Source of the DNA: a virus
Taxonomy: Duplodnaviria > Heunggongvirae > Uroviricota > Caudoviricetes
Reading direction: 5' to 3' (one strand)
Virus record (IMG/VR): IMGVR_UViG_3300049049_000146
Location: 67,216-131,215 of that record
DNA length: 64,000 nucleotides
Position numbers and translations under genes: made by a program
Shown: positions 2,118-53,886 of the stretch, in pieces
Layout of the letters: the number at the start of each line of letters is the position of its first letter
How positions within the stretch are numbered: the stretch's first letter is position 1
The notes under the pieces: generated by a model
What the model was told of the DNA's origin: nothing
The model's database searches: none
Seen by the model: the letters and a program-made list of their open reading frames with translations, nothing else

Positions 2118-2136
2118 TACTATCTCCGGACTTTGG
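2118..2136 (-). promoter_or_regulatory. conserved intergenic motif copy 1 (CCAAAGTCCGGAGATAGTA on gene strand)
   Basis: 3 nt after the stop of 2140..3435 and ~40 nt upstream of the ATG at 2075; matches the consensus shared by 7 other copies. Confidence 0.5.
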
Positions 2137-2139
2137 CAG

Positions 2140-3435
2140 TTACTTCGCGTGCGCTGCTTGTACCGGTGTACGTTCCAGCTTCCACTTTTTGAATTCGACG
2201 TTTAGAGTCGGAAGCTCCCCTGTCTTGTTCTTCTGGTCGAAAAGCTGTTGCGCGACTCGGTTTACTGCCTCTGAACTAACCTTGAACGTAGGGTCAGTCT
2301 TCTTGCCCTCGTACGCGATCACACAAGCCTTCGTGAATTCGATTACATCGTAATCGCCGGGAGCGCGCTTTCCGGTGTCTTTGTCTACTTCACACACAAG
2401 ACATTCCGCCGCGTGAAGAAACAATACCTGACGCGCTCTTCCAGGATTATCAAGGAAAGAATCGAGGAACTTCTTACCCGTGCACGTAGTAGACGACGTC
2501 AGAATATCCAACAGCCACCTCGCAATTGCGTCTTCTTTGCACACGAGTTCATGGATGCTGTTGACGATTTCTTCGATTCGCTTATTCGTAGAGGTCCGCT
2601 TGTTCGTAGAAGGATCTCTTTCTTCTAACTTCGAGATGAGATCCGACAAACGATTCACGTAAAAAGGTGCTTCCAGAGCGGAAGGCGCCTTCTTCAAGAG
2701 AAGCTGACTACGCACGAAGTACAACAGGTACTTCAAGTGAGAAAGCTGGATGTCGCGCTCTCTTAGAGTCGAGAGAACATACTGCCGATCCGCTCTAAGC
2801 TTGTTCTCAGCGAGCTTGGCCAGCTTCATCTGGTGGTCTACCGATGGGGCTGCTTGCTCTTTTTGCTTTTCTTGCTCCTGCTCCTGCGCTTTTTTAGCCT
2901 TCGCCCGCTGGACGCGCACCTTGTGCTCTATAATTTGAGCCATTGAGCTGAGCAGTCGGACAGCGTCCATGTCTTCGCCGTACAAGTCTTCGCCGATCGT
3001 TTCAACATCGCGAAGCACCCACTCTTCATTACGGGTTTTCGTGATGTCGAATTCGACGACGACTCCAGATCTAACAGGCCGTAAGATATCTGCCGCCTGC
3101 TTGAGGTACTTACTGCTCAGGGGGAATCCGCACTCAGAGCAATACTGAGCGTTATCAAACACCTGGGTGTCACAAACGTAACACTTAGCCTGCTGAATCA
3201 AAGTCATCCGACGCCTCCTCCATTTACCAGTGAACTTCCCGAGCGGTTCGAAGTCGAACGAAGGTTCAGTCTCGTACCAGCGTACAAATTGTACTCGGAC
3301 GGTGTTCTCTGGCGTCTTTCCTCCATTAGGAGGAGGATGGGTCGCCAGCACCTGGCGAACTTTCTCCGCTAGAATGAATTCCTCGCCAGGGCTAATGATG
3401 TTCCGCAGGGCTTCGAGGTAATAACGCTCATGCAT
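2140..3435 (-). CDS. hypothetical protein with CxxC zinc ribbon
   Basis: 431 aa ORF with balanced composition; CYVCD...CSECG motif; coiled-coil KEQE region. Confidence 0.6.
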   Translation of the reverse strand: MHERYYLEALRNIISPGEEFILAEKVRQVLATHPPPNGGKTPENTVRVQFVRWYETEPSFDFEPLGKFTGKWRRRRMTLIQQAKCYVCDTQVFDNAQYCSECGFPLSSKYLKQAADILRPVRSGVVVEFDITKTRNEEWVLRDVETIGEDLYGEDMDAVRLLSSMAQIIEHKVRVQRAKAKKAQEQEQEKQKEQAAPSVDHQMKLAKLAENKLRADRQYVLSTLRERDIQLSHLKYLLYFVRSQLLLKKAPSALEAPFYVNRLSDLISKLEERDPSTNKRTSTNKRIEEIVNSIHELVCKEDAIARWLLDILTSSTTCTGKKFLDSFLDNPGRARQVLFLHAAECLVCEVDKDTGKRAPGDYDVIEFTKACVIAYEGKKTDPTFKVSSEAVNRVAQQLFDQKNKTGELPTLNVEFKKWKLERTPVQAAHAK

Positions 3436-3442
3436 GGGCGGA

Positions 3443-3652
3443 TTACTCGTCCGTTTTTACGAACTTCCTATCGATGCAGCAAGTCTGGCCATCGCCAGTG
3501 AACGAACCGAGCACGTGATTCTCGGGGACGTCGATGTCTCGCGCCTCCCAGATCGTGCCCTTCACTCCCGCAGCGATAGGCGTGAATTGCCATACGCCAT
3601 TCACGATCCTGAGAGCACGAACGGCGCCCTCAACGGTTCTTACCTTTTGCAT
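3443..3652 (-). CDS. hypothetical protein
   Basis: 69 aa ORF, co-oriented, abuts neighbours. Confidence 0.45.
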   Translation of the reverse strand: MQKVRTVEGAVRALRIVNGVWQFTPIAAGVKGTIWEARDIDVPENHVLGSFTGDGQTCCIDRKFVKTDE

Positions 3653-3959
3653 TGCTTCGCTCCCAAGCTTCTAGAGACAGACGCGTGTCTCGTTCTTCAT
3701 CCGATTCCCACGCAGGCAACTCAGTCCTCGGCGTGCGTGCTTTGGAGAAATCGTCCTTCACGTCATTCAGGATCTCGTCGATCTCGTGCGACGAATTCCT
3801 ATTGACCTTCGCCGTGCTGTAGTCAACTCCGCCGCGCGCATTCCGCTGGGCTACGTAGTCGCACTTCGAGCAGCCGTAGAACTTCGACTTTGTCTGAGAA
3901 TTCTCCAGCAGAAGAAACATCCCTCGGCAGGTGTCGTCAGCGCAGCGGTAGGTCGTCAC
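3630..3959 (-). CDS. hypothetical zinc-finger protein
   Basis: 109 aa; CxxC...CxxC. Confidence 0.5.
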   Translation of the reverse strand: MTTYRCADDTCRGMFLLLENSQTKSKFYGCSKCDYVAQRNARGGVDYSTAKVNRNSSHEIDEILNDVKDDFSKARTPRTELPAWESDEERDTRLSLEAWERSNAKGKNR

Positions 3960-4007
3960 GGTCTTTTAACTTCGCACGAGTTCTTTACAGACTCAGTTCG
4001 AACGCGT

Positions 4008-4139
4008 TCAAACTTCGGATTTCTTCTCCGCCTGCTTGAACTTGCCAGGGCAGTAGAAGCCACACTGTAGCTTTTTCCACTGCTGGTGCATAGGCATTCG
4101 GGCGCGCTTGCCGCATTCGCTGCACACAAGCTCCCGCAT
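4008..4139 (-). CDS. small zinc-ribbon protein (43 aa)
   Basis: ATG start MRELVCSECGK with GAAGAAGA RBS; the track extends this frame to a GTG at 4199 but that part overlaps another coding-looking frame. Confidence 0.4.
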   Translation of the reverse strand: MRELVCSECGKRARMPMHQQWKKLQCGFYCPGKFKQAEKKSEV

Positions 4140-4159
4140 CTTGATCTTCTTCGGCGCCT

Positions 4160-4300
4160 TCACGTGACGAAATGCTTCTGCTCGTCGCAGCGCGAGCACT
4201 TCATGACGTGGAGCCGGCTACCGTCCCAGGCATGATTCGCCTGGTAGTACGACTGCCAGTCGTGTCCGAGTAAGAAACAGATGAACTGCCACAGCTTCAT
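4160..4300 (-). CDS. small protein (46 aa, MKLWQFICFLLGHDW...)
   Basis: Not in the track (<60 aa); ATG overlaps the stop of 4297..4587 as ATGA; protein-like composition; coordinates approximate. Confidence 0.35.
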   Translation of the reverse strand: MKLWQFICFLLGHDWQSYYQANHAWDGSRLHVMKCSRCDEQKHFVT

Positions 4301-4587
4301 TGCTTTGACTTTCGCTTGCGCTCCCAATAGGCCAGACGCTGGGTCAACTTCCGCGCTTCAGTTCGCGTGATGTTGTGCGCGTCCGTGTATTCCAGATTAG
4401 GACCGCGATGATTGATGAACTTCTGGTGCTTTTCGCGTACCAAACACGGCGGCGTAAGGTCCCAGTACCCCTTAGATGCGGGATTTCTTTTGCGCAGGTC
4501 ATCGTCGGTGACTTTCTTCTTCACCGAATCCAGGAGTGTTCTGGCTCCCTTGAATGCGCGCCAAGCATTTCGTTCAGGTATGTTCAA
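4297..4587 (-). CDS. hypothetical protein
   Basis: 96 aa ORF; ATGA overlap with upstream gene. Confidence 0.5.
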   Translation of the reverse strand: MNIPERNAWRAFKGARTLLDSVKKKVTDDDLRKRNPASKGYWDLTPPCLVREKHQKFINHRGPNLEYTDAHNITRTEARKLTQRLAYWERKRKSKQ

Positions 4588-4844
4588 TCGTCGCTCCCGT
4601 ATCTCTGTCGGTGCGTGCGGCTGAACTTCGATGTGCGGTACAGCTTCTTACGCTTCCGGGAAACGGACTTGCGTTGCTCGTCGACAACGAACTGGCCGTG
4701 CTCGTTGACAAACTGTTTCTCTGGCTCGTAAATGCGCGTGCACCTAATGATGTCACGCGACTTGATTGGCTCAGAGAACGGACGGCCGACCGTGATGTGC
4801 TTAGTCGGGTGTCTCACAGCGACCATTCTTTCGTTACCGTCCAT
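4584..4844 (-). CDS. hypothetical protein
   Basis: 86 aa ORF, basic. Confidence 0.5.
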   Translation of the reverse strand: MDGNERMVAVRHPTKHITVGRPFSEPIKSRDIIRCTRIYEPEKQFVNEHGQFVVDEQRKSVSRKRKKLYRTSKFSRTHRQRYGSDD

Positions 4845-5004
4845 AGTCTACGATGAGCAGAAGTGTGCCTCAGTTTCTTTTCCCTGGAATCAACTAGCTT
4901 TCGCTCGCCGTCATCAGGGCCAAGAAATTCATCACCAACAAGCGCGATCTTCTGACGAGAGAGTCGCGTCAGTCTTGTCTTCCTGTGCTGCGGAGTGCCC
5001 TTTC

Positions 5005-5151
5005 TCATTCACACGTGTCTTCGTGATCGATTTTGCAATCGTCACACATCGGCTCGCCGCACGCGAGACACTCGTCGAATTCACCGTCAGTGACCTCGGC
5101 GTGGCCACACTCGATGCACCGGTTACGATGCTTGTCGTTGTCGTCACTCAT
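5005..5151 (-). CDS. small Cys-rich zinc-binding protein
   Basis: Start chosen at MSDDNDK, overlapping the Nudix stop by 8 nt; CIECGH...CLACGEPMCDDC motifs. Confidence 0.5.
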   Translation of the reverse strand: MSDDNDKHRNRCIECGHAEVTDGEFDECLACGEPMCDDCKIDHEDTCE

Positions 5152-5800
5152 TGTCTTCCACTCCGAGGAGAGTCGTTGCATTGCGCAGTCTGTCAAGGAT
5201 TGCATCCTTGTTCCGAGCGTAGTCACGCTTCAGATAAGGTGCCGTCGTACCACTCTCCAGCATCCCAAGAGCCTTCTTGCAAATGCTGTGGAAGCGGGCC
5301 TTCGACGACTTGCTCGTACGGGACATCATGCCTTCGCTCTCTGCCGTCGCTGCGTGGAAATCGGCAAGGGCGAGAGCAATCGCCTCCATGTCCGATACAC
5401 CCCAGCGCGAGAAGAACACGCGATTGCCCGGGGCAAGCTCACGGAACCGGAGAATGTCCTCGGTAGTGAACCAGCCCATGCCCATTGCATCGAGGCACTT
5501 CGGCTGGAAAGTCTCGTCAGCCATGTAGACGTAGAACCAAATGGAGCACGGGCTCTTCATCTGCGGATGTTCTACGTGAATAATCTGCGGCCGGTCATCG
5601 AAAGCTGACGGAGGAATTTCGACGCCAAGCTCTTCGTGAAGCTCACGGCTCAGAGCATCACGAGGGTCCTCACCGGGCTCGACCTTGCCTCCGGGAGATT
5701 CCCAATAGAACGGAAGCTCTCGATGTGCTGCCCGCTGCTGCATGAAAATGCGGTCACCACGCATGATGATCGCAGTAACGACGTGGACTTCCTTGCTCAT
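5144..5800 (-). CDS. Nudix hydrolase
   Basis: 218 aa; canonical Nudix box GGKVEPGEDPRDALSRELHEELGV. Confidence 0.85.
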   Translation of the reverse strand: MSKEVHVVTAIIMRGDRIFMQQRAAHRELPFYWESPGGKVEPGEDPRDALSRELHEELGVEIPPSAFDDRPQIIHVEHPQMKSPCSIWFYVYMADETFQPKCLDAMGMGWFTTEDILRFRELAPGNRVFFSRWGVSDMEAIALALADFHAATAESEGMMSRTSKSSKARFHSICKKALGMLESGTTAPYLKRDYARNKDAILDRLRNATTLLGVEDNE

Positions 5801-5818
5801 CGCTTCTCTGCTTTCTAA

Positions 5819-5855
5819 CCCCCGAAGGGGGCCACGGCGTGGTTGCCTGCCGTGG
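5819..5855. repeat. two adjacent GC-rich hairpins (CCCCCGAAGGGGG; CCACGGC-N10-GCCGTGG)
   Basis: Perfect inverted repeats in an unusually long (~200 nt) gap between 5999..6403 and the Nudix start; weak U-tract. Confidence 0.4.
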
Positions 5856-5998
5856 CTCAGGCGCTGGATTGGGGCTCATTCGGCTGGGGGCACGTCGTCC
5901 AGTCACCAGTGCCTGCGTTGTCTGATTTGCCCTTGGCTTGTGTACAAGAGCAAATCGCCGTCCCTCCCCGACCTCTTATGATAAGCCTCTTTACAGGA

Positions 5999-6403
5999 TC
6001 ACGACACGTAGCACGAATACTTGTGCCCGACCCTGTCCATTTCTTCGGCAGTCGCGTGTACCTGGTGGAGTGCGTCGGCTAGGATGATGCCGCGCACCGT
6101 GCCCCGGCTAGGCTGCCATCGAAAGGGCTTGCGCGCCATTACCTGCTTGACGTCCGCATCGAATAGACCGTTCAGATCCTTCCAACGTTCGGCGTCAGCG
6201 CGAGTCGCGAACACGTATTCCTCGCACGGCAGATCGCGATCCTTGCGCAGGACGATGAACCCTCGGAAATCACCAGGGTCATTTGCTGTAGGAGCGCTAG
6301 CGAGGCCGTCACAGTAGTCGCACACCCAGGAAATGAACAGCTGGCGCATCTTCTTCGAGCACTTCTGACAGATCATATGAGCCTCATTTCGAAGGTCGCG
6401 CAA
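5999..6403 (-). CDS. hypothetical protein
   Basis: 134 aa ORF; CQKC...CDYC zinc ribbon at N-terminus. Confidence 0.5.
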   Translation of the reverse strand: MRDLRNEAHMICQKCSKKMRQLFISWVCDYCDGLASAPTANDPGDFRGFIVLRKDRDLPCEEYVFATRADAERWKDLNGLFDADVKQVMARKPFRWQPSRGTVRGIILADALHQVHATAEEMDRVGHKYSCYVS

Positions 6404-7043
6404 GCATCATGGCAAAGCCTCCGCGCTGCGCGAGGAAATCGCGGTGAATCTCAACCCACTCCTCATCGGGAGAAGTGCGAGCAGAACAGCTTACGAGAAC
6501 CTCTTCCTGAATCTTGGAGCCGAGCTTCTTGCCGGCGTCATCGAAAATCGGTACCTCTCTTGTGCGGAAGCCGCAGAGCATCACCCAATGGTCCGTCCAT
6601 AGGTCGCCGGTCTTACGGTAATTGACCCCGGTCAAACCGTAGTATCCGGCTTCGAGTGCCATTCGGACGTAACCAATCCAGCCACGGACCATCGTGCGCC
6701 CAGGCATACCGAACGCCAGGTCGCCGAATGCCGGGCGGAACTCGAAGGGCCAAATCGGAACCTCAGTGATGAAGTTGTCGATCAACCCGCGGCTCTTGGC
6801 TTCCCAGAGGACGCCCTCGACGTCGTAATTCGACAGAGAGTCGTACCCGTTCTTACCTTCGCGCGACCATCGCCATTGCTCTTCCTTGCGGGTTCGCGAC
6901 TTGGCGATCTCGTAGACCTCTTCAATGCTGAGGCCGGTCACACCAGCAGTCACACAGGCGACGCAATCACCGCCAGGATACTTGTGCGGGACCGGCTGAG
7001 GAATGACTCGACGCGGGAGAACGATCTCGACGAACTCGGACAT
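6384..7043 (-). CDS. hypothetical protein
   Basis: 219 aa ORF. Confidence 0.55.
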   Translation of the reverse strand: MSEFVEIVLPRRVIPQPVPHKYPGGDCVACVTAGVTGLSIEEVYEIAKSRTRKEEQWRWSREGKNGYDSLSNYDVEGVLWEAKSRGLIDNFITEVPIWPFEFRPAFGDLAFGMPGRTMVRGWIGYVRMALEAGYYGLTGVNYRKTGDLWTDHWVMLCGFRTREVPIFDDAGKKLGSKIQEEVLVSCSARTSPDEEWVEIHRDFLAQRGGFAMMLARPSK

Positions 7044-7052
7044 GCCTCCATT

Positions 7053-7559
7053 TTACAGGGAGCGCACAGCGTCGTAGACGCGCCGCCACATGTCCGGCGA
7101 CAGACCGTCCGGCGTGTACTGCTGGACCATGTAGATTCGAGTGTCGTCAGGCATCTCTGTGTTCAGAGACTCGCCTTCACGCTTGACGTAGAAATGATCG
7201 AAACCAAGAGCCAGGCCGAGGCCCAACTGCAAATAGCAGGCGAGTTCCTCTTCGTACTGCGCCACGCTATCCTCGACAACGACCTTCGGTCTTGAATTCC
7301 ACCGGTTCGGGTCTCCTCCAATACCGAACTCAGGGAGGAACCTACGCTCAGCAGGAGCAACCACGAAATGCGAAATGTCGTGGAGGTCCGTCATCACACC
7401 GTACAGGCCGGGCCTGACGACGAGGCTGTGCCCATCCCACGAGAACTCACGCTCGTAACGAGTAGCCTCTATGACGAAGTCGCACGTAGGATCGAGGCGA
7501 CGCATGATTCCGTACGCTTCACGGCGTACAGAACACCCTCCATCGGTGTACGTATACAT
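7053..7559 (-). CDS. hypothetical protein
   Basis: 168 aa ORF. Confidence 0.55.
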   Translation of the reverse strand: MYTYTDGGCSVRREAYGIMRRLDPTCDFVIEATRYEREFSWDGHSLVVRPGLYGVMTDLHDISHFVVAPAERRFLPEFGIGGDPNRWNSRPKVVVEDSVAQYEEELACYLQLGLGLALGFDHFYVKREGESLNTEMPDDTRIYMVQQYTPDGLSPDMWRRVYDAVRSL

Positions 7560-7563
7560 GGAG

Positions 7564-7794
7564 TCACCCGAAGAGAGTGAACGTCAGGAAATGAATTGCC
7601 TGAGCTTCCTGTTCGAGCTTGTCTGCGAGTGCACGCCCACTCAGGCCAGCATTCACGGTGCGGCCTTCGTAGATGTCTCGCGTCTCCTGTGTAGCATTCG
7701 CAAGCAGGTCGACGATCGACTTGCCCTCTCGGATTGCTTCGGCGATGCTGTATAGGTCTTCGACAGTCTGGTGATCTTCATCATGAGACGACAT
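7564..7794 (-). CDS. hypothetical protein
   Basis: 76 aa ORF. Confidence 0.45.
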   Translation of the reverse strand: MSSHDEDHQTVEDLYSIAEAIREGKSIVDLLANATQETRDIYEGRTVNAGLSGRALADKLEQEAQAIHFLTFTLFG

Positions 7795-7800
7795 TGAGAC

Positions 7801-8082
7801 TTACCCCAAAGGAAACTTCGGCTTTGGTAGTGCTGGCGGCTTTGCCGCAGGCTTCTTAGGTGGTGGCGGAGGGTCGCTCTGGTACTCGCCCATGAGTTTA
7901 CGGAGTTGGACGATTACGCGACCGCACTCCTCAGCGCGGATCATGAACTTCTCCACGACTTCTTCGCCGTGGGACTCGACGGCCTTGGCCATTTCTAGAT
8001 GGTTCTCTCGGTCCTCCGTCAATCTGTCGAGGAGGAACCGGAGTGTGAACCGGTCTAGTGGTGTTCTCCAATCATCTGGCAT
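7801..8082 (-). CDS. hypothetical protein (Pro-rich C-terminus)
   Basis: 93 aa ORF. Confidence 0.5.
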   Translation of the reverse strand: MPDDWRTPLDRFTLRFLLDRLTEDRENHLEMAKAVESHGEEVVEKFMIRAEECGRVIVQLRKLMGEYQSDPPPPPKKPAAKPPALPKPKFPLG

Positions 8083-8090
8083 AGTGGCAC

Positions 8091-8121
8091 CGTCAGGATA
8101 GTAGTAAATACTACCCTGACG
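8091..8121. repeat. long hairpin CGTCAGG-ATAGTAGTAAATACTAC-CCTGACG
   Basis: 7-bp outer plus 6-bp inner inverted repeat, about 10 nt upstream of the ATG at 8082. Confidence 0.4.
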
Positions 8122-8175
8122 TTTCCCATTATGCCGCGGCAGTCAAGTATCTGTCAATGAATCCTGGACAGATGC

Positions 8176-8421
8176 TCACGTTTCCGTAGGGGAATCCTCA
8201 CGCGGCGGCTCAGCGGGAGCCAGCTTCTTTTCCTCGACCTTCTTGCGCATGCTCAGGAACTTCCTGTACACGCCCTTGAATTCCTGGGAATTGAGCTTCG
8301 GCCCGAGGTCGATCTTGCCATCCCCGCTCTGCGCGGCGGTCAGGATCTCGTTCATGAATTCGATTTCCTCGAACGTGAACGAGTTGGAGACCCGGATCTT
8401 CGATTCCTTGATGAGCGTCAT
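8176..8421 (-). CDS. hypothetical protein
   Basis: 81 aa ORF; divergent from the plus-strand gene. Confidence 0.45.
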   Translation of the reverse strand: MTLIKESKIRVSNSFTFEEIEFMNEILTAAQSGDGKIDLGPKLNSQEFKGVYRKFLSMRKKVEEKKLAPAEPPREDSPTET

Positions 8422-8453
8422 CGCACGTTATCTTTCAGCTGGAGGGTTCGCGA

Positions 8454-9812
8454 ATGAGACTGACAGTTACAAACCTAACAAATTCGAGCATTTCGGTCGG
8501 TGGCCGCGTCGGCAAACTGCCCGCTGGTATTTCCACGACGACCACGTTGGATTTGACAGTTGACGAGCTTGAGAAGGTGCAGTCTCGTCTAGTAGCCTTG
8601 AAGGCTGCTGGTGTGATTCTTTTCACTGTGGCTGCAAATGCAGACACGAACGACAATCCTACCGAGGGCGTGACTGTCCAGTACATGCAGGACTACGTCA
8701 CAACGGCACTCGCGGGTGTAAGCGGGGGCGGAGGTGGCGGACCTACCTACATCGTTGGAAATTCGGCAGCAGGCGATACCTCCTCCAATTGTACGCACCT
8801 CGATTCCGGCAACGGAGACGCCCTCAGGACCGCTCTAGCTGCGGCAGGCGGCACCGGGGGCTCGGTGTTCGTTCGTCGCGGCACGTACACGCTCACGCAC
8901 GCTGGAGGAGCGACGGTAGTGCCAGGTAACGTAGACCTTATCGGAGAGGGTCAGGGAACCGTCCTCGCGCTACCCCGCAGTGGTGAAATCTTCTCACTCG
9001 ACATCAACGGCAGAGTTGAGAACTGCGCCATTCGGCAGACCGGCCAGCCTAACGGCGCGTTTGCATTCAGCACCAACCGATTCATCGAAATGCGAGGAGG
9101 TGCACGACTGAACAAGTGCCTTGTTGAAATCCTCGCAAACGGAGGAAGCGCGGGTAACTACGGCGGCTTCTACTCAATGGTCCGCATGTCGTCAGCCCTC
9201 GGCCTCGTGAGCAACTGCGTGTTCCGTGGCTATTCTTCGACGACTCTGGGTGCCGGCTTCGAGTGCTTGGGCGTCCAGGCTATCGGCGGATTCTGCGGTG
9301 TCGTTGATTCGACGTTCGGGGACACCGGCTTCAACGCATTCGATGTGCCCGTTGAACTTGGTGAAGCTTCGTACAACTACGCCAAGGGCTGCAACTTCGT
9401 CCGCACGACCATTCACGGCGTCCGCCTTGTGATGGTGTTCGACACGCAGGGTCAGCGTATCGAGGGATGCAACTTCGACGTACGAGGCGGAAACGGCGTG
9501 GGTATCGAATGGTTCGGCAACGGTGTGCTGCGCAACACGCTCATTCACGGAAACGTGATCTCTTGCGCAGCGACAGCGTCGCACGGAATCAACCTCTTCA
9601 GCACCTCGGGCACGAACGAAATCGACTTCCTCAGCATCCAGAACAACATGCTGGTTGGTGCTGGTGCGGGTATCGGAATCCGCCTCGCAGAGAGCGGAGG
9701 CGGACTCAACAGCAACGTCAATGAATCGCTGAACTCTGTCTACAACTTCGGCACGGCGCGAAGCATTGCTGCCACTGGCGGAGGTCTCACCCAGGTCGGC
9801 AATCTTCCCTGA
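8454..9812 (+). CDS. glycine-rich right-handed beta-helix (pectate-lyase-fold-like) protein; tail-fibre/depolymerase-like or moron
   Basis: 452 aa; the only credible plus-strand gene; GGAGGG RBS 7 nt before the ATG; repeated N/GC-x-F/I and IxN/IHGN PbH1-like beta-helix repeats; poly-Gly stretch. Confidence 0.6.
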   Translation: MRLTVTNLTNSSISVGGRVGKLPAGISTTTTLDLTVDELEKVQSRLVALKAAGVILFTVAANADTNDNPTEGVTVQYMQDYVTTALAGVSGGGGGGPTYIVGNSAAGDTSSNCTHLDSGNGDALRTALAAAGGTGGSVFVRRGTYTLTHAGGATVVPGNVDLIGEGQGTVLALPRSGEIFSLDINGRVENCAIRQTGQPNGAFAFSTNRFIEMRGGARLNKCLVEILANGGSAGNYGGFYSMVRMSSALGLVSNCVFRGYSSTTLGAGFECLGVQAIGGFCGVVDSTFGDTGFNAFDVPVELGEASYNYAKGCNFVRTTIHGVRLVMVFDTQGQRIEGCNFDVRGGNGVGIEWFGNGVLRNTLIHGNVISCAATASHGINLFSTSGTNEIDFLSIQNNMLVGAGAGIGIRLAESGGGLNSNVNESLNSVYNFGTARSIAATGGGLTQVGNLP

Positions 9813-9813
9813 G

Positions 9814-10512
9814 CTACTTCGCCCAGCGCTTGAACATCTCCACGACGGACTTGGCCCCGGAACGCTTGAGCGTCCCCTTGACGCGATTGAGTTCCTTCTC
9901 GGCCAGGTCCGTCAGCGTATGCTGCATCAGCTTTACCCCGGCGATGAATTCCTCGACATCTTCCTTGTTCTCTGAGGCGAAATAGATGACGCCGCCATCC
10001 CTCTCTGCCCTAAGGCCCGGCCCCGGAACACTGAAATCACCAGCCCGATCGTAGAACGAATCAAGGCTCTCTTCCTTGAAGACACGAATCGGCTTCTCAG
10101 AATAGAGACCGGACAGGTTGACGCAGGTGCCCCAAAGCTTGTCCGCCTTGTCCTGCCTAGCCTTCCTGCCTTTCTTGTAGAGCTTCTCGGCTTCGTATTC
10201 CTTCCGCTCACGGGTTCCATTCTTGTAGTAGACGTCCACTACAAAGATGTCGTACAGCGGAGCGAACGAGTCGCTGCCCGTGAAGTAGTCCTCCATCTTG
10301 AGGAGAGACCACTCGTCGTAATACGTAGGCGTAGGGGTACCCTGGTCCTCACGCCACTTGTGACTCCAGCGATGTTCCAGGCTCCCGACGATCGACTCTG
10401 CCTTGGCGTTCGCCTCCTCCGGCGTGTCCGCTTCAATACACAGGCAGTGACCGTACGTGTCGGTAACGTTGAACCGGCCGTTGGGATTGTTCTGATCGTA
10501 CGTGAAGAACAT
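9814..10512 (-). CDS. hypothetical protein
   Basis: 232 aa ORF; convergent with the plus gene, stops 1 nt apart. Confidence 0.55.
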   Translation of the reverse strand: MFFTYDQNNPNGRFNVTDTYGHCLCIEADTPEEANAKAESIVGSLEHRWSHKWREDQGTPTPTYYDEWSLLKMEDYFTGSDSFAPLYDIFVVDVYYKNGTRERKEYEAEKLYKKGRKARQDKADKLWGTCVNLSGLYSEKPIRVFKEESLDSFYDRAGDFSVPGPGLRAERDGGVIYFASENKEDVEEFIAGVKLMQHTLTDLAEKELNRVKGTLKRSGAKSVVEMFKRWAK

Positions 10513-10515
10513 GAG

Positions 10516-11679
10516 TCAGGTCTTTCCGGGTACTCGAATTGCGGGGACGTACGCCGCGTCCTCGGGGCCCTTCTGGTGCGGCTTCACCCAGGTAGACTTC
10601 ACCGCAATCCATTCGTCGGGGCGCTTCGGAGCGATGTGGCGCTGGAAGAGTTTGCGCAGGTAATCGTCTTCGATGTCAAGCAGGAAGATTTGGTACCCAC
10701 GCTTGCGCAGCTTCTCCTCGACCTTCGGAGGAATCGGGAGCGGCCCCCGCTGCACCTTGACCCGCTCGTGACCGCGCACGTCGAAGCGGTACGTGTAGCG
10801 GAACGAGGGGCCCGCTGCGGCGTTTCTCTCCTGCTCTTCGAGCACCTTACTCGACATACGAAGCACGTAATACGGCTTCGGCAGGAAAGTCATTCGGGCT
10901 TGCTTCGCCTTCTTCTGAAGGTCGCGGCGCTGCCCCGGCGTGTACGTGACTTCCTTGATGAATGTGCGGTACTGCTCCAGTACGTGCGCGAAGATCTGCA
11001 CCATCCAGGGCACGAGCGAATAGCTCCGAATCCAGTTGCCCTTGGTGCGAATGATCTCGGGGATGAGGGACGAGGAGCCGTCAGCTTGCTCGTATTCAAC
11101 AAGCTCGATGACCGTGCCGTCGTCCTTCTGCGTAATCACGTAGCCACGAACGACAGCGGCTACGATATCGGTTCGGAAGAATTGGCGGTAGTGCTCCATG
11201 CGAACCATGAAGTCCGACGCCGAGATATGAACTCCCTGACCTAGCCCGATGTACACAGTCTCGAAGGGCCAACGCTGCGGGAATTCGACGTGCTTGCACT
11301 CCTTGAGAATCTTAGCCATGTAGGCTTCGGCTTCTTCCTTAGGAGGAGCTTCGCTTCCCGCGGGCCGGTAACGATATCCGGCCAGCACTTCCGTCGTGTA
11401 CATCTCAGCCTGCCGGTACGCGTACAGGTACACGTGCGGCTCAAACACGAACAGGCGAGCATTCCACAGCAACGAGAATACCTCGCGCGTGAATGCTCGC
11501 CGCTGCTCGTCAGTTGCTTCGGCAGCAACCCTGCTGCCGTCGTCGTAGTTCAGGACAGGCTGAACATCGTCCCGCAACAGCTTCTCTTGATTCATCGTGC
11601 GATGAAGAGAAGCCATCGTGTGGAAGTAGTATTCGAGACTCTCCTTGGACTGGTCTCGACCGTACGTGATATCAACCAT
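10516..11679 (-). CDS. hypothetical protein
   Basis: 387 aa ORF, balanced composition. Confidence 0.6.
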   Translation of the reverse strand: MVDITYGRDQSKESLEYYFHTMASLHRTMNQEKLLRDDVQPVLNYDDGSRVAAEATDEQRRAFTREVFSLLWNARLFVFEPHVYLYAYRQAEMYTTEVLAGYRYRPAGSEAPPKEEAEAYMAKILKECKHVEFPQRWPFETVYIGLGQGVHISASDFMVRMEHYRQFFRTDIVAAVVRGYVITQKDDGTVIELVEYEQADGSSSLIPEIIRTKGNWIRSYSLVPWMVQIFAHVLEQYRTFIKEVTYTPGQRRDLQKKAKQARMTFLPKPYYVLRMSSKVLEEQERNAAAGPSFRYTYRFDVRGHERVKVQRGPLPIPPKVEEKLRKRGYQIFLLDIEDDYLRKLFQRHIAPKRPDEWIAVKSTWVKPHQKGPEDAAYVPAIRVPGKT

Positions 11680-11911
11680 GGTGGTGCTGGTAGAAACGAG
11701 ACGAAAGACCCATGTCCTGCTTGCGGAGGCTCAGGTCTCCCTCGAACATCACGCAGAGTAGCTGCTGAATTAGCCACCCCTGGATGAACTGATCGAGGCA
11801 ACCATTCTTTTCTGCCTTGCGGGCCTGGCGGCGGGTCGCGTGGTTGACACTATGACGGGAGCGATACCATCCCATCATGAACGCATGCTGCTGAGCTTCA
11901 GTCGGAGGCAT
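11672..11911 (-). CDS. hypothetical protein
   Basis: 79 aa ORF. Confidence 0.4.
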   Translation of the reverse strand: MPPTEAQQHAFMMGWYRSRHSVNHATRRQARKAEKNGCLDQFIQGWLIQQLLCVMFEGDLSLRKQDMGLSSRFYQHHHG

Positions 11912-12279
11912 CAGAAGAATAGGTCCTTCCTCGCTTCGAGGCGCGTTCTCACCTTGTCCATCACCGGGAGCAATGCAGCCAAGCGCGGGTCGTTGATCTT
12001 CGCGAACATCTCAGTATTGAAGCGGTCTCGACTGAAAGGGATTCTCCCTAGAGTCGTCGCGAGGTAGAGGTCACGGGCCTCAGAGCGAAGCTGCTCAGCA
12101 AACCACAGCTGATTCTCGCGCTCCACTCTAAGGTCGTCAAACTCATCGAGCTTTTCCCACTCCGCTCGACGCGCCTCCCATTCCTCTTCAAGCCTAGTCT
12201 CAAGCTCGAACGCCGCCCGATAAACACGAGCGGCGTCCTGCATTGCGTCGTTATCGATAGGAGGCAAAGTGAAAGTCAC
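11911..12279 (-). CDS. hypothetical protein
   Basis: 122 aa ORF. Confidence 0.5.
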   Translation of the reverse strand: MTFTLPPIDNDAMQDAARVYRAAFELETRLEEEWEARRAEWEKLDEFDDLRVERENQLWFAEQLRSEARDLYLATTLGRIPFSRDRFNTEMFAKINDPRLAALLPVMDKVRTRLEARKDLFF

Positions 12280-12833
12280 TGCTTCGATTCCTGTTCAAGC
12301 GCCTCGTCGAGAAGCTTCCGCACGCGCTCGATTTCCGACTTCTTGTGCGGGGTACCGCCAGCGTTGATGTTGACGTACCACTGGAGGATATCGCTCCGCT
12401 TCTTCAACGAAGCAACCCGCACACGGAACGACGAGCGCACCATCCGAAGGTTGTCCGTGTACTCCCGGCAGTACGAATTGAATGCAGGGATCTCGTTGTT
12501 CATGAAGGCCAGCACCGCAGTGAGCCGCTGCTTGCCATCGACAATCACGAACTGCTCGCTCTTCGAGACACGGAAAGAACCCATCCAATTCGGATGATTG
12601 AAGTACAGGTTCCTTCCGCTCTCACCGCCGAGTAGCTGGTACTCCACGAACGCAATCTGCTGCGCCTTGGTCCAGACGTGACCGCGCTGGAAATCCGGAT
12701 CGAGATTCAGGCCGTCCTCAGAAATCCAGCGGCTGATGTGCTCAGGCAGGTACTTCCAGCCGACGTCGCACTCGTAGTTGGGTGAGGGAAATTGGGGGAT
12801 GTCCCCGAACTTCGTGTACTTGACGGTGCTCAT
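12276..12833 (-). CDS. DUF262 / ParB-like nuclease-domain protein
   Basis: 185 aa; DPDFQRGHVW motif characteristic of the DUF262 (GmrSD N-terminal, ParB/Srx-like) fold. Confidence 0.6.
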   Translation of the reverse strand: MSTVKYTKFGDIPQFPSPNYECDVGWKYLPEHISRWISEDGLNLDPDFQRGHVWTKAQQIAFVEYQLLGGESGRNLYFNHPNWMGSFRVSKSEQFVIVDGKQRLTAVLAFMNNEIPAFNSYCREYTDNLRMVRSSFRVRVASLKKRSDILQWYVNINAGGTPHKKSEIERVRKLLDEALEQESKQ

Positions 12834-13330
12834 CGCGAAAGCCGAATGTACCTGGGAAGCTCGGCCTGAAGCTCCAGGACCATCTTCTCGCAGTCGATCG
12901 TCTCCGCTGCCTTCTTATCGAAGGCCCACACGAAGATTCCGTAGACGTGCTCCTTCACTTCCTTGACACCGGGGAGCATTCGGAAAGGTTCACCATCCGA
13001 CAGACGCTCCGCCTGTAGCCGGGCCTTCCACAGGTAATCCCACAGGTCGTCCGCCTCACCATCGTATTCATCGTCAGGCGTGCCCATCTTCATGAGCCCG
13101 TAGAGGTCGTGCTTGCGGAACAACTCCCGGACGACGCGCTGGCCGTCACGGTAAAGCGGGCCGGGGTCGGTTGCCTCCAGGAGATTCGCGACCGTGCCGA
13201 ACTCGGGACGACCGAACGTCGCCGCCGTGGTGCGTAGGTGCTCGATGATCTTGGCCTGCTCATCTCGCGGAACGGAGCGCCACTCTTTGACGCACTCGTC
13301 CATCGAATAGTAGTACGGCTTATCGTCCAT
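12830..13330 (-). CDS. hypothetical protein
   Basis: Start placed at MDDKPYYY (ACGGAGA RBS); the track's GTG-extended N-terminus is a low-complexity basic frame. Confidence 0.5.
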   Translation of the reverse strand: MDDKPYYYSMDECVKEWRSVPRDEQAKIIEHLRTTAATFGRPEFGTVANLLEATDPGPLYRDGQRVVRELFRKHDLYGLMKMGTPDDEYDGEADDLWDYLWKARLQAERLSDGEPFRMLPGVKEVKEHVYGIFVWAFDKKAAETIDCEKMVLELQAELPRYIRLSR

Positions 13331-13609
13331 TGAAAATCTCCGTATCGTACTTGCCGTTCTTCGCGTCTTCAATCTTCTGTTCCCAGCGAGCCTTCTCAGC
13401 TTCGTCTTCTTCACGACGGAGCTTGAGATACTCCCGGATACCCTCGCCTAACTGGCGAATGATTTCGGGTCCGATTGCGACGAGAATTTCTTTCACGGCC
13501 AGTCGTGGGGATCGTGGTCTTCGAACTTGTGCGGCGTGCCCCTGACGAGAAGCACGCCCACAATTACCAATGTGATGACGAAGATTCCTAAGAGGTGCAT
13601 CCGATCATT

Positions 13610-14452
13610 TTACTCCGCCTTCGGGGCGAGAGCCACTACACGAGCGAATCGCTCAGCGTTGCGGTCGGCCGCTTCCTTCAGGAAGCCGAAGACGTCCGAG
13701 AGATCTTCCTTCTCGACCAGCGAGATCTGAATTCCCCTGCTGCATCCCTTCCGAGGGTGCAGCCACCAGAGAACCAATTCGACGTGAGCGGCAGGCGCCG
13801 TGTAGACGGAACCGTCCCCGTTGCACTCGGGGCAGAGGCCGTACACACCGAGCCGCTTGGCGCGGGTCTCGATGAGAATCCAACGATTGATTGCGTCGTG
13901 CGGACCGAAATGATGCTCGCTGGAATAGCGCATGATTCGGTTGACGTAGTTCACGTCAGCCGCAGTCGGACGGGGACTCGGCGGGTCCCACTTGTTCGTC
14001 TCGCGATTGTACCGAGCACCGAGCCGCCCTGCCTCGATCAGGGCGTCAACCTCGTCCTCGGTAATGGCGTCGCACCAACGACGTCCCTTACCATCGAAGT
14101 CGTAGAAGTCTTCGGAGATCTGGGCGGTCTCTCGATTGTAGCCGCGGCTACCTGACCCCGACCACTGCGAGCAGGTCGGGCACTCCTTGGAGTCGCGTCG
14201 AAGGGAGAAGTAGAAATTGACGCACTCGTTCAGGTCGTTGAGGCCGCCGTACGTGTTACGGAATTCCTTCCACGAGGCGATGAACGACGGGCTTTCCCAG
14301 CCGCGGTCCTTCCCTTTCGCCATGTAATCTTCGTTCGGCCCCCAATGAGGGTAGTCGGGATTCAGCTTGAGAAGCTCGGCCATCCACGGCTCGGCCTTGA
14401 GCTTCTCAAGATCCTTCATGTCACTCTCGTCCTCAGGGTAGCAGCGCATCAT
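13610..14452 (-). CDS. hypothetical protein (Cys motifs CPTC, CPEC)
   Basis: 280 aa ORF. Confidence 0.55.
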   Translation of the reverse strand: MMRCYPEDESDMKDLEKLKAEPWMAELLKLNPDYPHWGPNEDYMAKGKDRGWESPSFIASWKEFRNTYGGLNDLNECVNFYFSLRRDSKECPTCSQWSGSGSRGYNRETAQISEDFYDFDGKGRRWCDAITEDEVDALIEAGRLGARYNRETNKWDPPSPRPTAADVNYVNRIMRYSSEHHFGPHDAINRWILIETRAKRLGVYGLCPECNGDGSVYTAPAAHVELVLWWLHPRKGCSRGIQISLVEKEDLSDVFGFLKEAADRNAERFARVVALAPKAE

Positions 14453-14698
14453 TCATCCCTTTTCGATCGCGCCAGTGTCGAAGTTGACCCAGCCGTGAAA
14501 GACATACTTCCATCCCGCTCCCCTGGAGGTGTCGGGATAGTGCGGAGGCGCTTCCGCATAGGTGCATCCCTCGCCAACGTGCAGGTAGCAGATTTCACCT
14601 GCACCGGCCGAGTCGAGGGCAGCGTTCTGGTATGCGGCCCATCTCGTGTTAGGCCGCAATCGGGAGCGCATCGTCGCGAGCGTCTCGGCGTCGATCAT
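14453..14698 (-). CDS. hypothetical protein
   Basis: 81 aa ORF. Confidence 0.45.
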   Translation of the reverse strand: MIDAETLATMRSRLRPNTRWAAYQNAALDSAGAGEICYLHVGEGCTYAEAPPHYPDTSRGAGWKYVFHGWVNFDTGAIEKG

Positions 14699-14997
14699 CA
14701 GACGCTCGCTTCCTCACCCTCGCCCGGGTCCTCCTCTTCGTCGTCTTCCTCGTCGGACTCTTCGTCCGCCTCCTCTTGAAGGGAATCGATAGCTTCTTCA
14801 AGAGTGGCCATACTGGAGCCGATGTAGTCGTGGTCGCTGCTGAGCGCCATCACGATCTGAGCGTACCAGTATGCCTTGGCGCGGTCGTACTCGAACTTGT
14901 TGCCGCTGTGCCGGACGATCTCCAGAGCCTCGAATGCGAGGTCCTGCATTTCCGTCTTGATCTTCTTGAGGCGATCGATGTCTTCCTGGTCAACCAT
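14698..14997 (-). CDS. hypothetical protein with strongly acidic C-terminus
   Basis: 99 aa ORF. Confidence 0.5.
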   Translation of the reverse strand: MVDQEDIDRLKKIKTEMQDLAFEALEIVRHSGNKFEYDRAKAYWYAQIVMALSSDHDYIGSSMATLEEAIDSLQEEADEESDEEDDEEEDPGEGEEASV

Positions 14998-14999
14998 GT

Positions 15000-16671: not shown

Positions 16672-16706
16672 GGCCGTCTCCTTCTGGTGGAACGCTCCAC
16701 CCTCTA

Positions 16707-16726
16707 TTAGTATCGACGGACTTTGG
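16707..16726 (-). promoter_or_regulatory. conserved intergenic motif copy 2 (CCAAAGTCCGTCGATACTAA)
   Basis: Begins immediately after the TAG stop at 16727; ~35 nt upstream of the ATG at 16671. Confidence 0.5.
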
Positions 16727-28098: not shown

Positions 28099-28118
28099 AG
28101 TAGTATCGGCGGACTTTG
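28099..28118 (-). promoter_or_regulatory. conserved intergenic motif copy 5 (GCAAAGTCCGCCGATACTAC)
   Basis: Immediately (~4 nt) upstream of the ATG at 28094. Confidence 0.45.
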
Positions 28119-44683: not shown

Positions 44684-44706
44684 CGGAACCCTAGCATCGT
44701 CGGACT

Positions 44707-44991
44707 TTACTCATCCTCGACCAGCGACACGAAACCTTCCTGAGCCTCAAGGAAGGCACGCTGTTCGTCGGTGACGTTGCAGAGTTCCAGCTGGAACTGG
44801 TCAGGACCACAGGTGTAATCCTTCGGACTGTAGTTCGGACAGGTGTACGAGAGACGGTTCTTCGCTAGAAGCCGAACCACAGGCAACGACTTCTCGACAG
44901 AGACGTTCCACGTAAGCCGGTAGAAACGCGCCTTCTTCATGTGCCTCCAAAAGCCGAAAGGCGGAGCAGCCGAAGCCGCCCCGCCTTTCAT
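44707..44991 (-). CDS. hypothetical protein
   Basis: 94 aa ORF. Confidence 0.45.
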   Translation of the reverse strand: MKGGAASAAPPFGFWRHMKKARFYRLTWNVSVEKSLPVVRLLAKNRLSYTCPNYSPKDYTCGPDQFQLELCNVTDEQRAFLEAQEGFVSLVEDE

Positions 44992-47327: not shown

Positions 47328-47379
47328 GTGCTCCCCAAACGAAAAAGGGCGGAGCCCCGAAAGGCCCCGCCCTAATTCA

Positions 47380-48358: not shown

Positions 48359-48377
48359 TAGTATCGTCGGACTTTGG
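48359..48377 (-). promoter_or_regulatory. conserved intergenic motif copy 6 (ACCAAAGTCCGACGATACTAG)
   Basis: 4 nt after the TGA stop at 48382 and ~35 nt upstream of the ATG at 48320. Confidence 0.5.
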
Positions 48378-50511: not shown

Positions 50512-50530
50512 TAGTATCGGCGGAGTTTCC
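50512..50530 (-). promoter_or_regulatory. conserved intergenic motif copy 7 (GGGAAACTCCGCCGATACTAAAGG, variant)
   Basis: 3 nt after the TAA stop at 50534 and ~17 nt upstream of the ATG at 50495. Confidence 0.45.
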
Positions 50531-52572: not shown

Positions 52573-52762
52573 CGCGGGCCCGCTCTGCGTTCTTCAGCCT
52601 CGCTTCGAGTTCGTAGCAGCGCTCGCGGAGACTGTCTTCAGACTTCATGAGCGCCCGAACATTTCGAACCAGCATGCGAACCGTAGGAATGAGAGGACTA
52701 TCGTAGAACTTGATCGTCTTCTCAATCTCGGTAAGCGTCTTCCGGTCCATGATCTTTGTCAT
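52505..52762 (-). CDS. hypothetical protein
   Basis: 85 aa ORF. Confidence 0.45.
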   Translation of the reverse strand: MTKIMDRKTLTEIEKTIKFYDSPLIPTVRMLVRNVRALMKSEDSLRERCYELEARLKNAERARDEAYDKGRQEAYAAIGWRRANA

Positions 52763-53030
52763 CTAGAATCTCCTTGGCCCAAGCTTTGAGCTTCTTCGAA
52801 AAGCGTTCTGCTCTGATCTGCGATTCACCCACCGCGAGAGCGAACGCAATGATCAGAAAAGCGAGAATGATCGCGCCAGCCACACTCTTCACCGTTTCCC
52901 AGGTATCCGTAACTAGGCCGTAGCCAACGTACCAAAGCCCCGCGAAGAAAATCGCGAGCATGAACGCCGCTGAGAACAGTGTCTGTGCATTCAAAACGAA
53001 CCAAGCAAATGCTCGCTTAATCTTCGTCAC
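52722..53030 (-). CDS. small membrane protein
   Basis: 102 aa; GTG start; two TM helices. Confidence 0.45.
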   Translation of the reverse strand: MTKIKRAFAWFVLNAQTLFSAAFMLAIFFAGLWYVGYGLVTDTWETVKSVAGAIILAFLIIAFALAVGESQIRAERFSKKLKAWAKEILDDKDHGPEDAYRD

Positions 53031-53171
53031 GGTTCTCCTCAGCCTCTCTAAGCTCTTTTAACTTCGTGAAGAACACCACCAACGACTCACCAATTAGTCG
53101 GCGGATGTGGCGAGCCGCCGACGGCTTTATTGGCGCATCGTTTTCGAGCATTCGCCACAGCTTCCGCACGT

Positions 53172-53525
53172 TCATGAGTTGTCCGTGTCGTCTCCCGTCA
53201 TCCTAACGATGTGGTTGACGTTCGCTGCAATGTGCTCGTCGTGCGCCAGGTCCTTGCCCGTGTGCGAATACGTATTCGCCTTCGCTTCAGCTTCCTGATT
53301 TGCCTGGCCCTGCACAAGCGCAGAACCACGACCCGTCAAGCGATACTGCGCACCGCCACCCGGAGGGAGGCGCGTCAGGTACCCCTGTGCAACGAGGCCC
53401 TCAATGACGCGAAGAATCGTCGTCTCTGGTACGCTGTAATACGAAGCCAGATTCGCGACCGCATCGTTGTCCTTGTAGATTCGGCCAAGGACAACAGAAG
53501 CGCTAATTACTCGTCTCGATACCAT
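53172..53525 (-). CDS. winged-helix DNA-binding protein (MarR/ArsR-like fold)
   Basis: Start at MVSRRV; NLASYYSVPETTILRVIEGLVAQGYLTR...YRLT looks like a wHTH recognition helix and wing. Confidence 0.5.
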   Translation of the reverse strand: MVSRRVISASVVLGRIYKDNDAVANLASYYSVPETTILRVIEGLVAQGYLTRLPPGGGAQYRLTGRGSALVQGQANQEAEAKANTYSHTGKDLAHDEHIAANVNHIVRMTGDDTDNS

Positions 53526-53886
53526 TAGGATCCTCCATGATGAAAAGCGTCTCAGTAAACTTAGGACGGCCGCGAAGAACCTTCCCGTCGGCACTAATCC
53601 AGATCTTCTCTTCCCACACGAATAGACCACGAACGTGGTCAGACTCGACGCGAAGCGTCTTATCACATCGGGTGCAGGTCGTCAGCTTCTCTCTGAATTC
53701 CCGAATGAAATTCTCTTTGTGGACACAGAAGGTCTGAGCGTCCTCAGGAATCCCAGAGTAGTCGACTTCAGGAGCATTTCTGCCCAGCGCATTACGACGG
53801 TAGGATACTACGGTTTCGCCGTGGAGGCCGAGCCGGCACATCAGCTTCTGCATGCGTAGCATCCACGGACTTTGGTAGCGCGTCAT
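53503..53886 (-). CDS. hypothetical protein (start uncertain)
   Basis: 127 aa; a degenerate motif copy lies in the N-terminal codons. Confidence 0.45.
   Translation of the reverse strand: MTRYQSPWMLRMQKLMCRLGLHGETVVSYRRNALGRNAPEVDYSGIPEDAQTFCVHKENFIREFREKLTTCTRCDKTLRVESDHVRGLFVWEEKIWISADGKVLRGRPKFTETLFIMEDPNGIETSN

Follow-up and report, generated by a model that had tools for sequence, protein, structure and literature searches.

Promoters of the T7/T3/SP6 type are contiguous blocks of ~17–23 bp that have no -35 element; they carry a G at +1 and are conserved from +1 to +6 (GGGAGA-like). In phage T4, a MotA box is centred near -30 in the middle promoters, and the late promoters (gp55) consist of a -10 element only, with no upstream box. 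Here we characterize a motif of 17–18 bp, one contiguous block, that recurs on one strand of a 64,000-nt stretch of DNA (IMG/VR record IMGVR_UViG_3300049049_000146, positions 67,216 to 131,215; the whole stretch is called the window below) from an uncultivated phage of ~424 kb. The motif is probably a phage-specific promoter, which would be read by a phage-encoded sigma-like factor or polymerase.

Other described systems share some of its properties. The sigma-28 (FliA) promoter combines a -10 element GCCGATAA with a -35 element TCTAAAG at -36 to -30 (PMC12784957). The PeSL cassettes of T4-like phages, which lie in hyperplastic regions, are formed by an early sigma-70 consensus promoter and a stem-loop (PMC2839356, PMC4122927). 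Cluster A mycobacteriophages such as L5 and Bxb1 possess 20–30 repressor sites that act as stoperators; these are short, asymmetric, distributed genome-wide and oriented with transcription, and their consensus varies between related phages along with the repressor (PMC6550527).

A discrete motif on the gene strand

The window (58% G+C) has nearly all of its genes on the minus strand and contains one tRNA. Its source is a phage contig of 423,795 bp from a metagenome (JGI sample 3300071358); identical segments occur in Logan contigs of run SRR35213100, one of which, L217, extends 10 kb past the window. A scan with the plus-strand pattern TAGTATCGNCGGACTTTG, allowing up to three mismatches, found 11 copies of the motif CAAAGTCCG-N-CGATACTA, as compared with 0.12 expected by chance from dinucleotide-preserving shuffles. 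All 11 lie on the gene strand (minus) and are matched on the plus strand as TAGTATCGNCGGACTTTG, in agreement with a preliminary description of this DNA, in which the copies had been given the same orientation as the minus-strand genes. In a weight-matrix scan the 11 copies scored 25.6–31.5 bits and the next candidates 16.1 and 9.5 bits; the 9-bit gap between the weakest copy and the next-best match defines a discrete, strand-specific family. No match on the opposite strand of the window reached 8 bits.

The conserved core is AAA[G/C]TCCG-N-[C]G-AT[A/G][C/G]TA. Its two halves, which had been reported to be 5 nt apart, are divided by a single variable base. Flanking positions are uninformative (no more than 0.5 bit at every one of them in the window copies) and the motif has no structure of its own. 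All eight copies listed previously (2118, 16708, 25128, 25310, 28101, 48359, 50512 and 53857) are present, with coordinates right to within 1–2 nt. The recurrence of 7–8 was nevertheless too low a count, as copies at 44692–44709, 60645–60662 and 62644–62661 had been missed. When the 10 kb beyond one end of the window is included, the count becomes 12 in 74 kb, and every copy is on the gene strand.

The 16.1-bit candidate is a degenerate copy, TAAAGCCCGACGATGCTG, at 24905–24922 on the minus strand, inside gene 24504–25085; it may be a decayed copy of the motif.

Placement of the copies in the window

The copies are concentrated between genes. By our own gene calls, intergenic DNA makes up 8.3% of the window and holds 7 of the 11 copies (binomial P = 6.6e-6), and the distance from the end of the motif to the next start codon is 3–52 nt. 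Three-frame inspection revealed a stop codon 0–5 nt ahead of six copies (2118, 16708, 25310, 48359, 50512 and 44692). The earlier statement that the motif always follows a stop codon thus holds for six of 11; one of the others follows a tRNA, three are in the 3' ends of open reading frames (ORFs) and one is inside an ORF. The three at ORF ends (28101, 53857 and 62644) occupy the last codons of a small upstream ORF, 3–9 nt before an ATG. The geometry described around the tRNA was accurate, with 27 nt between the end of the upstream copy and tRNA-Ile and 61 nt between the tRNA and the start of the downstream copy. Stem-loops begin within 1–12 nt after four copies (2118, 16708, 25128 and 25310); their sequences differ, and the other sites are without one. 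The copies and the structures next to them are as follows.

2118..2135, minus strand: motif CAAAGTCCGGAGATAGTA, 26.7 bits; starts 4 nt past the TAA of gene 2140–3435 and ends 52 nt ahead of the ATG of a HAD_SAK_2 gene (start at 2063)
2082..2116, minus strand: strong 14-bp stem-loop, then TTTCCGTTTGGAGG; directly after copy 2118, terminator- or attenuator-like, and of one class (hairpin, T-run, GGAG, ATG) with those at 62863, 47344 and 44941
16708..16725, minus strand: motif CAAAGTCCGTCGATACTA, 31.1 bits; 1 nt past a TAG and 36 nt before ATG 16671
16686–16701, minus strand: short hairpin downstream of copy 16708
25310..25327, minus strand: motif CAAAGTCCGGCAATACTA, 27.5 bits; 1 nt past a TAG, ends 27 nt upstream of tRNA-Ile
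25286–25307, minus strand: hairpin between copy 25310 and tRNA-Ile
25207–25283, minus strand: tRNA-Ile, anticodon AAU, with one motif copy on each side
25162–25193, minus strand: strong hairpin between tRNA-Ile and copy 25128
25128..25145, minus strand: motif CAAAGTCCGACGATACTA, 31.5 bits; 61 nt 3' of tRNA-Ile and 42 nt before ATG 25085
25101–25115, minus strand: hairpin downstream of copy 25128
28101..28118, minus strand: motif CAAAGTCCGCCGATACTA, 30.1 bits; within the 3' end of a 62-aa called gene (28075–28263), 6 nt from ATG 28094 with no Shine-Dalgarno sequence between
44692..44709, minus strand: motif TAAAGTCCGACGATGCTA, 27.6 bits; begins with the TAA stop codon of gene 44707–44991 and ends 8 nt before ATG 44683
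48359..48376, minus strand: motif CAAAGTCCGACGATACTA, 31.5 bits; 5 nt past a TGA and 38 nt before ATG 48320
50512..50529, minus strand: motif GAAACTCCGCCGATACTA, 25.6 bits; 4 nt past a TAA and 16 nt before ATG 50495, with GGAGGGAG between
53857..53874, minus strand: motif CAAAGTCCGTGGATGCTA, 26.6 bits; in overlapping coding sequence, conserved in the related contigs L082 and L084
60645..60662, minus strand: motif AAAACTCCGACGATAGTA, 26.2 bits, three mismatches; inside ORF 60424–60819, and may be an internal site
62644..62661, minus strand: motif AAAAGTCCGTAGATGCTA, 26.6 bits; overlaps the end of the upstream ORF and ends 9 nt ahead of an ATG, followed immediately by GGAG

Conservation and variants in related phages

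Relatives were gathered via a 413-aa cysteine-rich protein that is encoded just downstream of copy 50512. This protein has 94 relatives, many on contigs of 100–850 kb (up to 848 kb); not all of these contigs carry the motif. Four motif copies were found in L082 (413-aa protein 92% identical) and three in L084 (75% identical), in each case on the gene strand and at orthologous positions. At the L084 ortholog of copy 48359 the motif is 17/18 identical, as compared with 46% and 30% in the two flanking stretches of 50 columns, and another gene follows downstream. Shortly downstream of this synteny-breaking copy, L084 has a 463-aa gene with a Cas12f1-like TNB (TnpB-type) domain (L084:12372–13763).

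More distant relatives carry altered forms. In L085 (protein 42%, 392-kb contig) the motif is GAACCCTG-N-CGATA[C/G]TA, referred to hereafter as variant B, which has the same 3' half and another 5' half; one of its copies overlaps the TGA stop immediately upstream of the orthologous gene. Variant C, GAACCCTG-NN-CATA[C/G]TA, is found in L121 (45%) and L123 (43%). The 3' half common to all forms is nATA[C/G]TA. The position of copy 50512 holds the lineage's own form of the motif in L082, L084, L085 and L121. A scan of IMG/VR with variant B yielded 13 exact matches, all on one strand, in IMGVR_UViG_3300029893_000001 (392,328 bp, the same phage as L085), and three more on a 58-kb contig; with a relaxed pattern, 20 distinct sites were counted in the retrieved pieces of the 392-kb phage. 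The three forms together occur in 8–10 contigs from at least six samples.

The catalogue of all loci comprises 50 sites, none of them on the opposite strand. Six positions are invariant: A3, A4, C7, A13, T14 and T17. The block is followed by A in 21 sites, G in 18, C in 7 and T in 4, a purine in 39 of 50 (78%), and no further position is conserved. The 20 nt upstream of the 50 sites showed no consensus and no -35 element, which bears out the earlier remark that the motif does not fit a -35/-10 arrangement.

Searches in other collections found little. The exact motif had no match in IMG/VR, 24 kb of the window had none among GenBank phages (megablast), the 413-aa protein had none among phages (tblastn), and an SPFH protein used as bait gave none in IMG/VR. 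JGI metagenome contigs scanned for AAAGTCCGNCGATACTA produced at least 80 single unrelated matches; among those listed, only one had a second, weak match. Relatives of the 413-aa protein in a bacterial and archaeal genome collection brought no motif copies and no usable clue to the host. A literature search for the motif words returned chance primer matches only, and one for jumbo-phage promoter motifs returned nothing relevant. Thus neither the motif nor the phage lineage is present in the phage collection or the searchable literature; phage-specific promoters are well known as a kind of element.

Some contigs with relatives of the 413-aa protein (L207–L215) have been deposited in metagenome-assembled genomes labelled Patescibacteria, Uhrbacteria and uncultured Gammaproteobacteria, and are probably phage contigs binned with cellular genomes. 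The 58-kb variant B relative, L113, contains an ORF of at least 2,454 aa, cut by the end of the locus, on the strand opposite the motif (L113:6388–13752). It was considered as a virion polymerase and set aside, Pfam having given no informative match.

Genomic contexts and their bearing on function

At least six variant copies lie 3–20 nt past canonical intrinsic terminators and 20–60 nt before the next start codon (for example L085:2137, L121:9954, L123:5868, L123:9939 and L089:861). The motif is the sole conserved element in these short gaps, in which the promoter needed by the next gene has almost nowhere else to be. In three phages the motif is found 22–41 nt upstream of tRNA genes, including tRNA clusters in relatives. 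A signal placed ahead of tRNA genes acts at the level of transcription or RNA, and a purely translational signal is thereby excluded. The twelfth copy (L217:19441), just outside the window, has a perfect consensus and is preceded by no co-directional stop codon. It lies in a 305-nt gap past an opposite-strand gene of 554 aa, 79 nt before the next forward gene, which cannot be served by read-through from upstream.

The genes downstream of the motif are an early or accessory set. In the 392-kb phage one copy stands directly ahead of an rIIA-like GHKL gene (by our own reading of its sequence motifs; Pfam assigned no family), and on the source contig a 746-aa gene and an rIIB-like gene lie just upstream of the window. 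Other genes served by the motif encode ligases, NUDIX and MazG enzymes, a kinase, tRNAs and many orphans.

A sister lineage offers a comparison. In L088 (47%), nearly every intergenic gap has an ordinary promoter-like site, TTCACA-N17-TATA[G/C]T, often right after a stop codon. The same genomic niche is thus filled by promoters in this lineage, with the same preference for C or G at the fifth position of the -10 element.

Over L088:1662–15920 (80-kb contig), many of these -10 elements are exactly 6 nt before an ATG, and several of the genes are without a Shine-Dalgarno sequence. This pattern suggests that leaderless mRNAs may be widespread in L088.

A predicted promoter and its relation to known systems

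From the sequence, its conservation and its contexts we infer promoter activity, the position of the start site and the nature of the reading protein. In the -10-like hexamer of the 50 sites, [G/C/A]ATA[C/G]T, the A at the second position and the T at the sixth are invariant. These are the two positions at which bacterial -10 hexamers are most strongly conserved, and the 3' half, G-A-T-A-[C/G]-T(-A), is read as a -10-type melting element, which would place the hexamer at -12 to -7. The abutting 5' half, AAAGTCCG, would lie at about -23 to -15 and replace the -35 element as the determinant of specificity, and transcription would start ~5–8 nt downstream of the motif. At several sites the predicted transcripts would open with a purine-rich leader and a 5' stem-loop. 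Promoters of this kind would start transcription units of 2–17 kb in the accessory or early-type region of the ~424-kb phage. A phage-encoded reader is favoured because the 5' half is lineage-specific (AAAGTCCG vs GAACCCTG) while the 3' half is constant, and because the information in the block far exceeds that of host housekeeping promoters. Such a reader could be a sigma-like factor or an activator on the host RNA polymerase, or else a phage polymerase. The identical 18-mers may also be recombination points at which gene cassettes are shuffled.

A more far-reaching proposal, which we put forward tentatively and regard as rather doubtful, is that the motif is the promoter of an undescribed transcription system. 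A phage-encoded factor or polymerase would read a single uninterrupted block spanning about -23 to -6, in which a -10-like core is joined to a proximal specificity box, and the box would have co-evolved into at least three forms: AAAGTCCG-N-CGATAsTA, GAACCCTG-N-CGATAsTA and GAACCCTG-NN-CATAsTA (s = C or G). The repeats may in addition be recombination points at which gene and tRNA cassettes are swapped. The reader may, with modest probability, represent a new type.

The motif resembles T7-type promoters in several respects. It is a contiguous block of ~17–18 bp with no -35 element, an A-rich 5' end, a G+C-rich centre and an A+T-rich 3' end (ACTA); it recurs between genes on the coding strand; and its upstream specificity part varies among relatives while the downstream part is kept. 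However, the likeness to promoters of T7-type single-subunit polymerases that had been suggested fails on the conserved initiation region, which the motif lacks: the next base is a purine in 78% of sites, with no GGGAGA-like run. Nor was a T7-like polymerase detected in ~450 kb of ORFs (window and fetched loci).

With the T4 middle and gp55 promoters the motif shares a -10-like hexamer and the lack of a -35 element. Its additional, phage-specific upstream element would need a phage-encoded reader; unlike the arrangement in T4, this box abuts the -10 at about -23 to -15. As compared with sigma-70 promoters, the motif has the A2 and T6 of the -10 but no -35 hexamer 16–18 bp upstream. Variant B, TGCCGATA[C/G]TA, matches 7/8 bases of the sigma-28 -10 consensus, including the extended -10 GC. 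The window form matches 5–6/8 and keeps G-N-CGATA, and variant C has CATA, without the CGA core. Unlike sigma-28 promoters, the motif lacks a -35 at the required distance; in the window form a TAAAG-like sequence, the 5' half, is ~10 bp too close (its AAAG lying at about -22 to -19), and variants B and C do not have it. Phage 7-11 shares the ligase only, and its annotated promoters are ordinary sigma-70 sites.

Like the PeSL cassettes, the motif is a repeated, promoter-like element in an orphan-rich region, sometimes near stem-loops or terminators, and two copies bracket a tRNA. One copy, the ortholog of 48359, coincides with a gene-replacement breakpoint between relatives, and it is the only one that does so; this may hint at recombination at the motif. 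The PeSL cassettes differ in having an A+T-rich upstream region and stem-loops with G/C tracts, whereas the motif lacks a -35 and its stem-loops are variable and missing at most sites.

Search for the reading protein

The preliminary description had stated that no RNA polymerase is encoded in the window. This was confirmed with Pfam, PHROGs and phmmer, and no sigma factor was found there either: comparison of 144 window ORFs with Pfam and PHROGs revealed no RNA polymerase or sigma domain. The 20 largest ORFs from ~93 kb of the 392-kb relative had no RNA polymerase or sigma factor in Pfam, and none was present in the 10 kb of DNA beyond one window end or in the gene tables covering 10 kb on each side. 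When FliA, RpoD and T7 RNA polymerase were used as phmmer queries against 3,306 ORFs (451 kb in total, comprising the window and fetched loci, of which only some are from relatives), no match was obtained. No homologues of MotA, AsiA or gp55 were seen.

A candidate family was followed in a distant relative, L125 (413-kb groundwater contig, 62% G+C). There, a 271-aa protein with two sigma-70 region-4-like helix-turn-helix units is encoded at 19946–20761, next to a clamp-loader gene. The family comprises 969 matches, many on contigs of 200–600 kb. No link between this family and the motif-carrying phages was found, and 79 IMG/VR loci around the tandem sigma region-4 gene contained no motif of this type. 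P0204, which had been considered as a link, turned out to belong to another phage (65% G+C) that lacks the motif.

L125 has another repeated element, GGGCGTAATAC, over positions 1777–16491. Seven of its eight copies are at a fixed 4–5 nt before an ATG, which suggests either leaderless transcripts or a start-associated signal.

Weighing the explanations

The earlier proposal of a phage-specific promoter is strengthened by orthologous conservation with diverged flanks, by the shared -10-like half and by the terminator, tRNA and opposite-gene contexts. Several observations weigh against it. No RNA polymerase or sigma factor, and hence no cognate factor, was found in ~170 kb of the source phage and a relative. 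A crude terminator detector was positive at only 18% of sites, as compared with 9% of random positions. Window copy 2118 and L112:1100 are directly followed by terminator-like hairpins, an odd arrangement for a simple promoter. Three window copies overlap coding sequence and a fourth lies inside an ORF, and no copy is present at the forward gene that follows the opposite-strand gene 8454–9812. Finally, with one strand carrying nearly all of the genes, orientation along the direction of transcription is poorly separable from location on one DNA strand; ORF content was compared between the strands to tell the two apart, but was uninformative at the G+C content of this DNA.

The motif could instead be a stoperator-like operator, an asymmetric site at which a phage DNA-binding regulator blocks or modulates the elongating polymerase and which has no promoter activity of its own. 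Its asymmetry, strand specificity, many copies oriented with transcription, frequent abutment to stop codons and consensus varying among related lineages are all as in stoperators, and one protein of the window gave a weak Peptidase_S24 match (E = 4e-4). However, a roadblock would be purposeless directly after an efficient terminator, before tRNAs or after an opposite-strand gene, contexts which, like the -10-like invariants of the 3' half, are more in keeping with initiation than with blockage. In L088 the equivalent positions are taken by ordinary promoters. Moreover, the parts examined of this ~424-kb phage with rIIA/rIIB-like genes show no sign of lysogeny, and no integrase is among the families listed for the window and the flanking gene tables. 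We therefore consider a stoperator unlikely, noting that in L5 some stoperator sites are true operators inside promoters, so that the stoperator and promoter readings can overlap. An RNA signal, either a processing or stabilizing site that cuts polycistronic transcripts and releases the tRNA or the site of an RNA-binding regulator, would explain why the motif is on the transcribed strand between cistrons and why copies lie on both sides of the tRNA; the stem-loops after several copies could protect a new 5' end. But the motif itself is unstructured and matches no Rfam family (with the covariance models of Rfam 15, the tRNA alone reached the gathering score in the window), and the neighbouring hairpins are unconserved in sequence and missing at most sites. 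Copies that follow terminators would rarely be transcribed unless a promoter lay in the same 40–60 nt, where the motif is the sole conserved element, and upstream of the copy behind the opposite-strand gene there is no co-directional transcript on which processing could act. The RNA-processing alternative raised in the preliminary description is thus weakened, in part by the order of terminator and then motif, and we regard an RNA signal as quite improbable.

Phage nick consensus sequences such as TACT/RTGMC contain a TACT core, and a core like it is also in the motif. A DNA-level signal unrelated to expression, such as the strand-specific nick sites of T5 or of the tf/LUZ24 type, or a signal for recombination or replication orientation, would fit the location of all copies on one DNA strand, which is not cleanly separable from gene orientation here, as well as the synteny breakpoint at one copy and the pair of copies that brackets the tRNA. 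Yet such a signal has no reason to avoid coding DNA, when 7/11 copies are in 8% of the sequence, or to take fixed places relative to terminators, start codons and tRNAs, and the bases after TACT are unconserved. It is the explanation to which we give very little credence. The phage-specific promoter remains the reading that we favour.

A second motif and other features of the region

A second short motif, CTGTAAA, shows a similar strand bias. The window contains 10 copies, all on the gene strand, as compared with 2.4 expected for both strands together. Their positions (minus strand) are 3984, 5990, 7052, 33568, 36094, 41384, 45883, 53997, 61646 and 63334, and seven of the 10 are intergenic or overlap a stop codon (e.g. 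TGA-N2-CTGTAAA), 9–47 nt before a start codon. Across the loci checked it occurs 46 times on the gene strand vs 2 on the other, being found also in L082, L085, L121, L123, L098, L099, L108 and L217, and the 7-mer is unchanged in phages whose 18-mer motif is different. CTGTAAA may be a second promoter class or some other expression signal.

An intergenic module of another type recurs on the minus strand at about 62846–62887, 47328–47379, 44941–44987 and 2064–2116. It consists of a G+C-rich hairpin, TTTYNNTTTGGAG(G), 5–6 nt and an ATG, so that a terminator-like hairpin runs straight into the ribosome-binding site of the next gene. The opposite-strand genes, 8454–9812 (plus strand, 452 aa) and L217:17568–19232 (554 aa), belong to no Pfam family and have no 18-mer motif upstream on their own strand. 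In the predicted tRNA-Ile (25207–25283; Rfam score 50.7 bits) an A.C mismatch closes the anticodon stem, and the anticodon AAU is, to our knowledge, unusual for bacteria and phages. The ATP-dependent DNA ligase of the window (36662–38059, minus strand) has an N-terminal DUF4326 fused to its ligase and OB domains.

Implications

What is known of giant phages that have not been cultivated is almost confined to the genes they contain, and says little about how their expression is timed. A sharply defined motif is a handle for dividing their genomes into transcription units. The lineage-specific variants are clear enough for a relative's genome to be retrieved from a public collection by the motif alone, and the motif could help to recognize fragments of the same lineage in metagenomes and guide the search for the protein that reads it. 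If that reader is indeed a new sigma-like factor or polymerase, a compact and specific 18-bp promoter would be useful as an orthogonal expression part.

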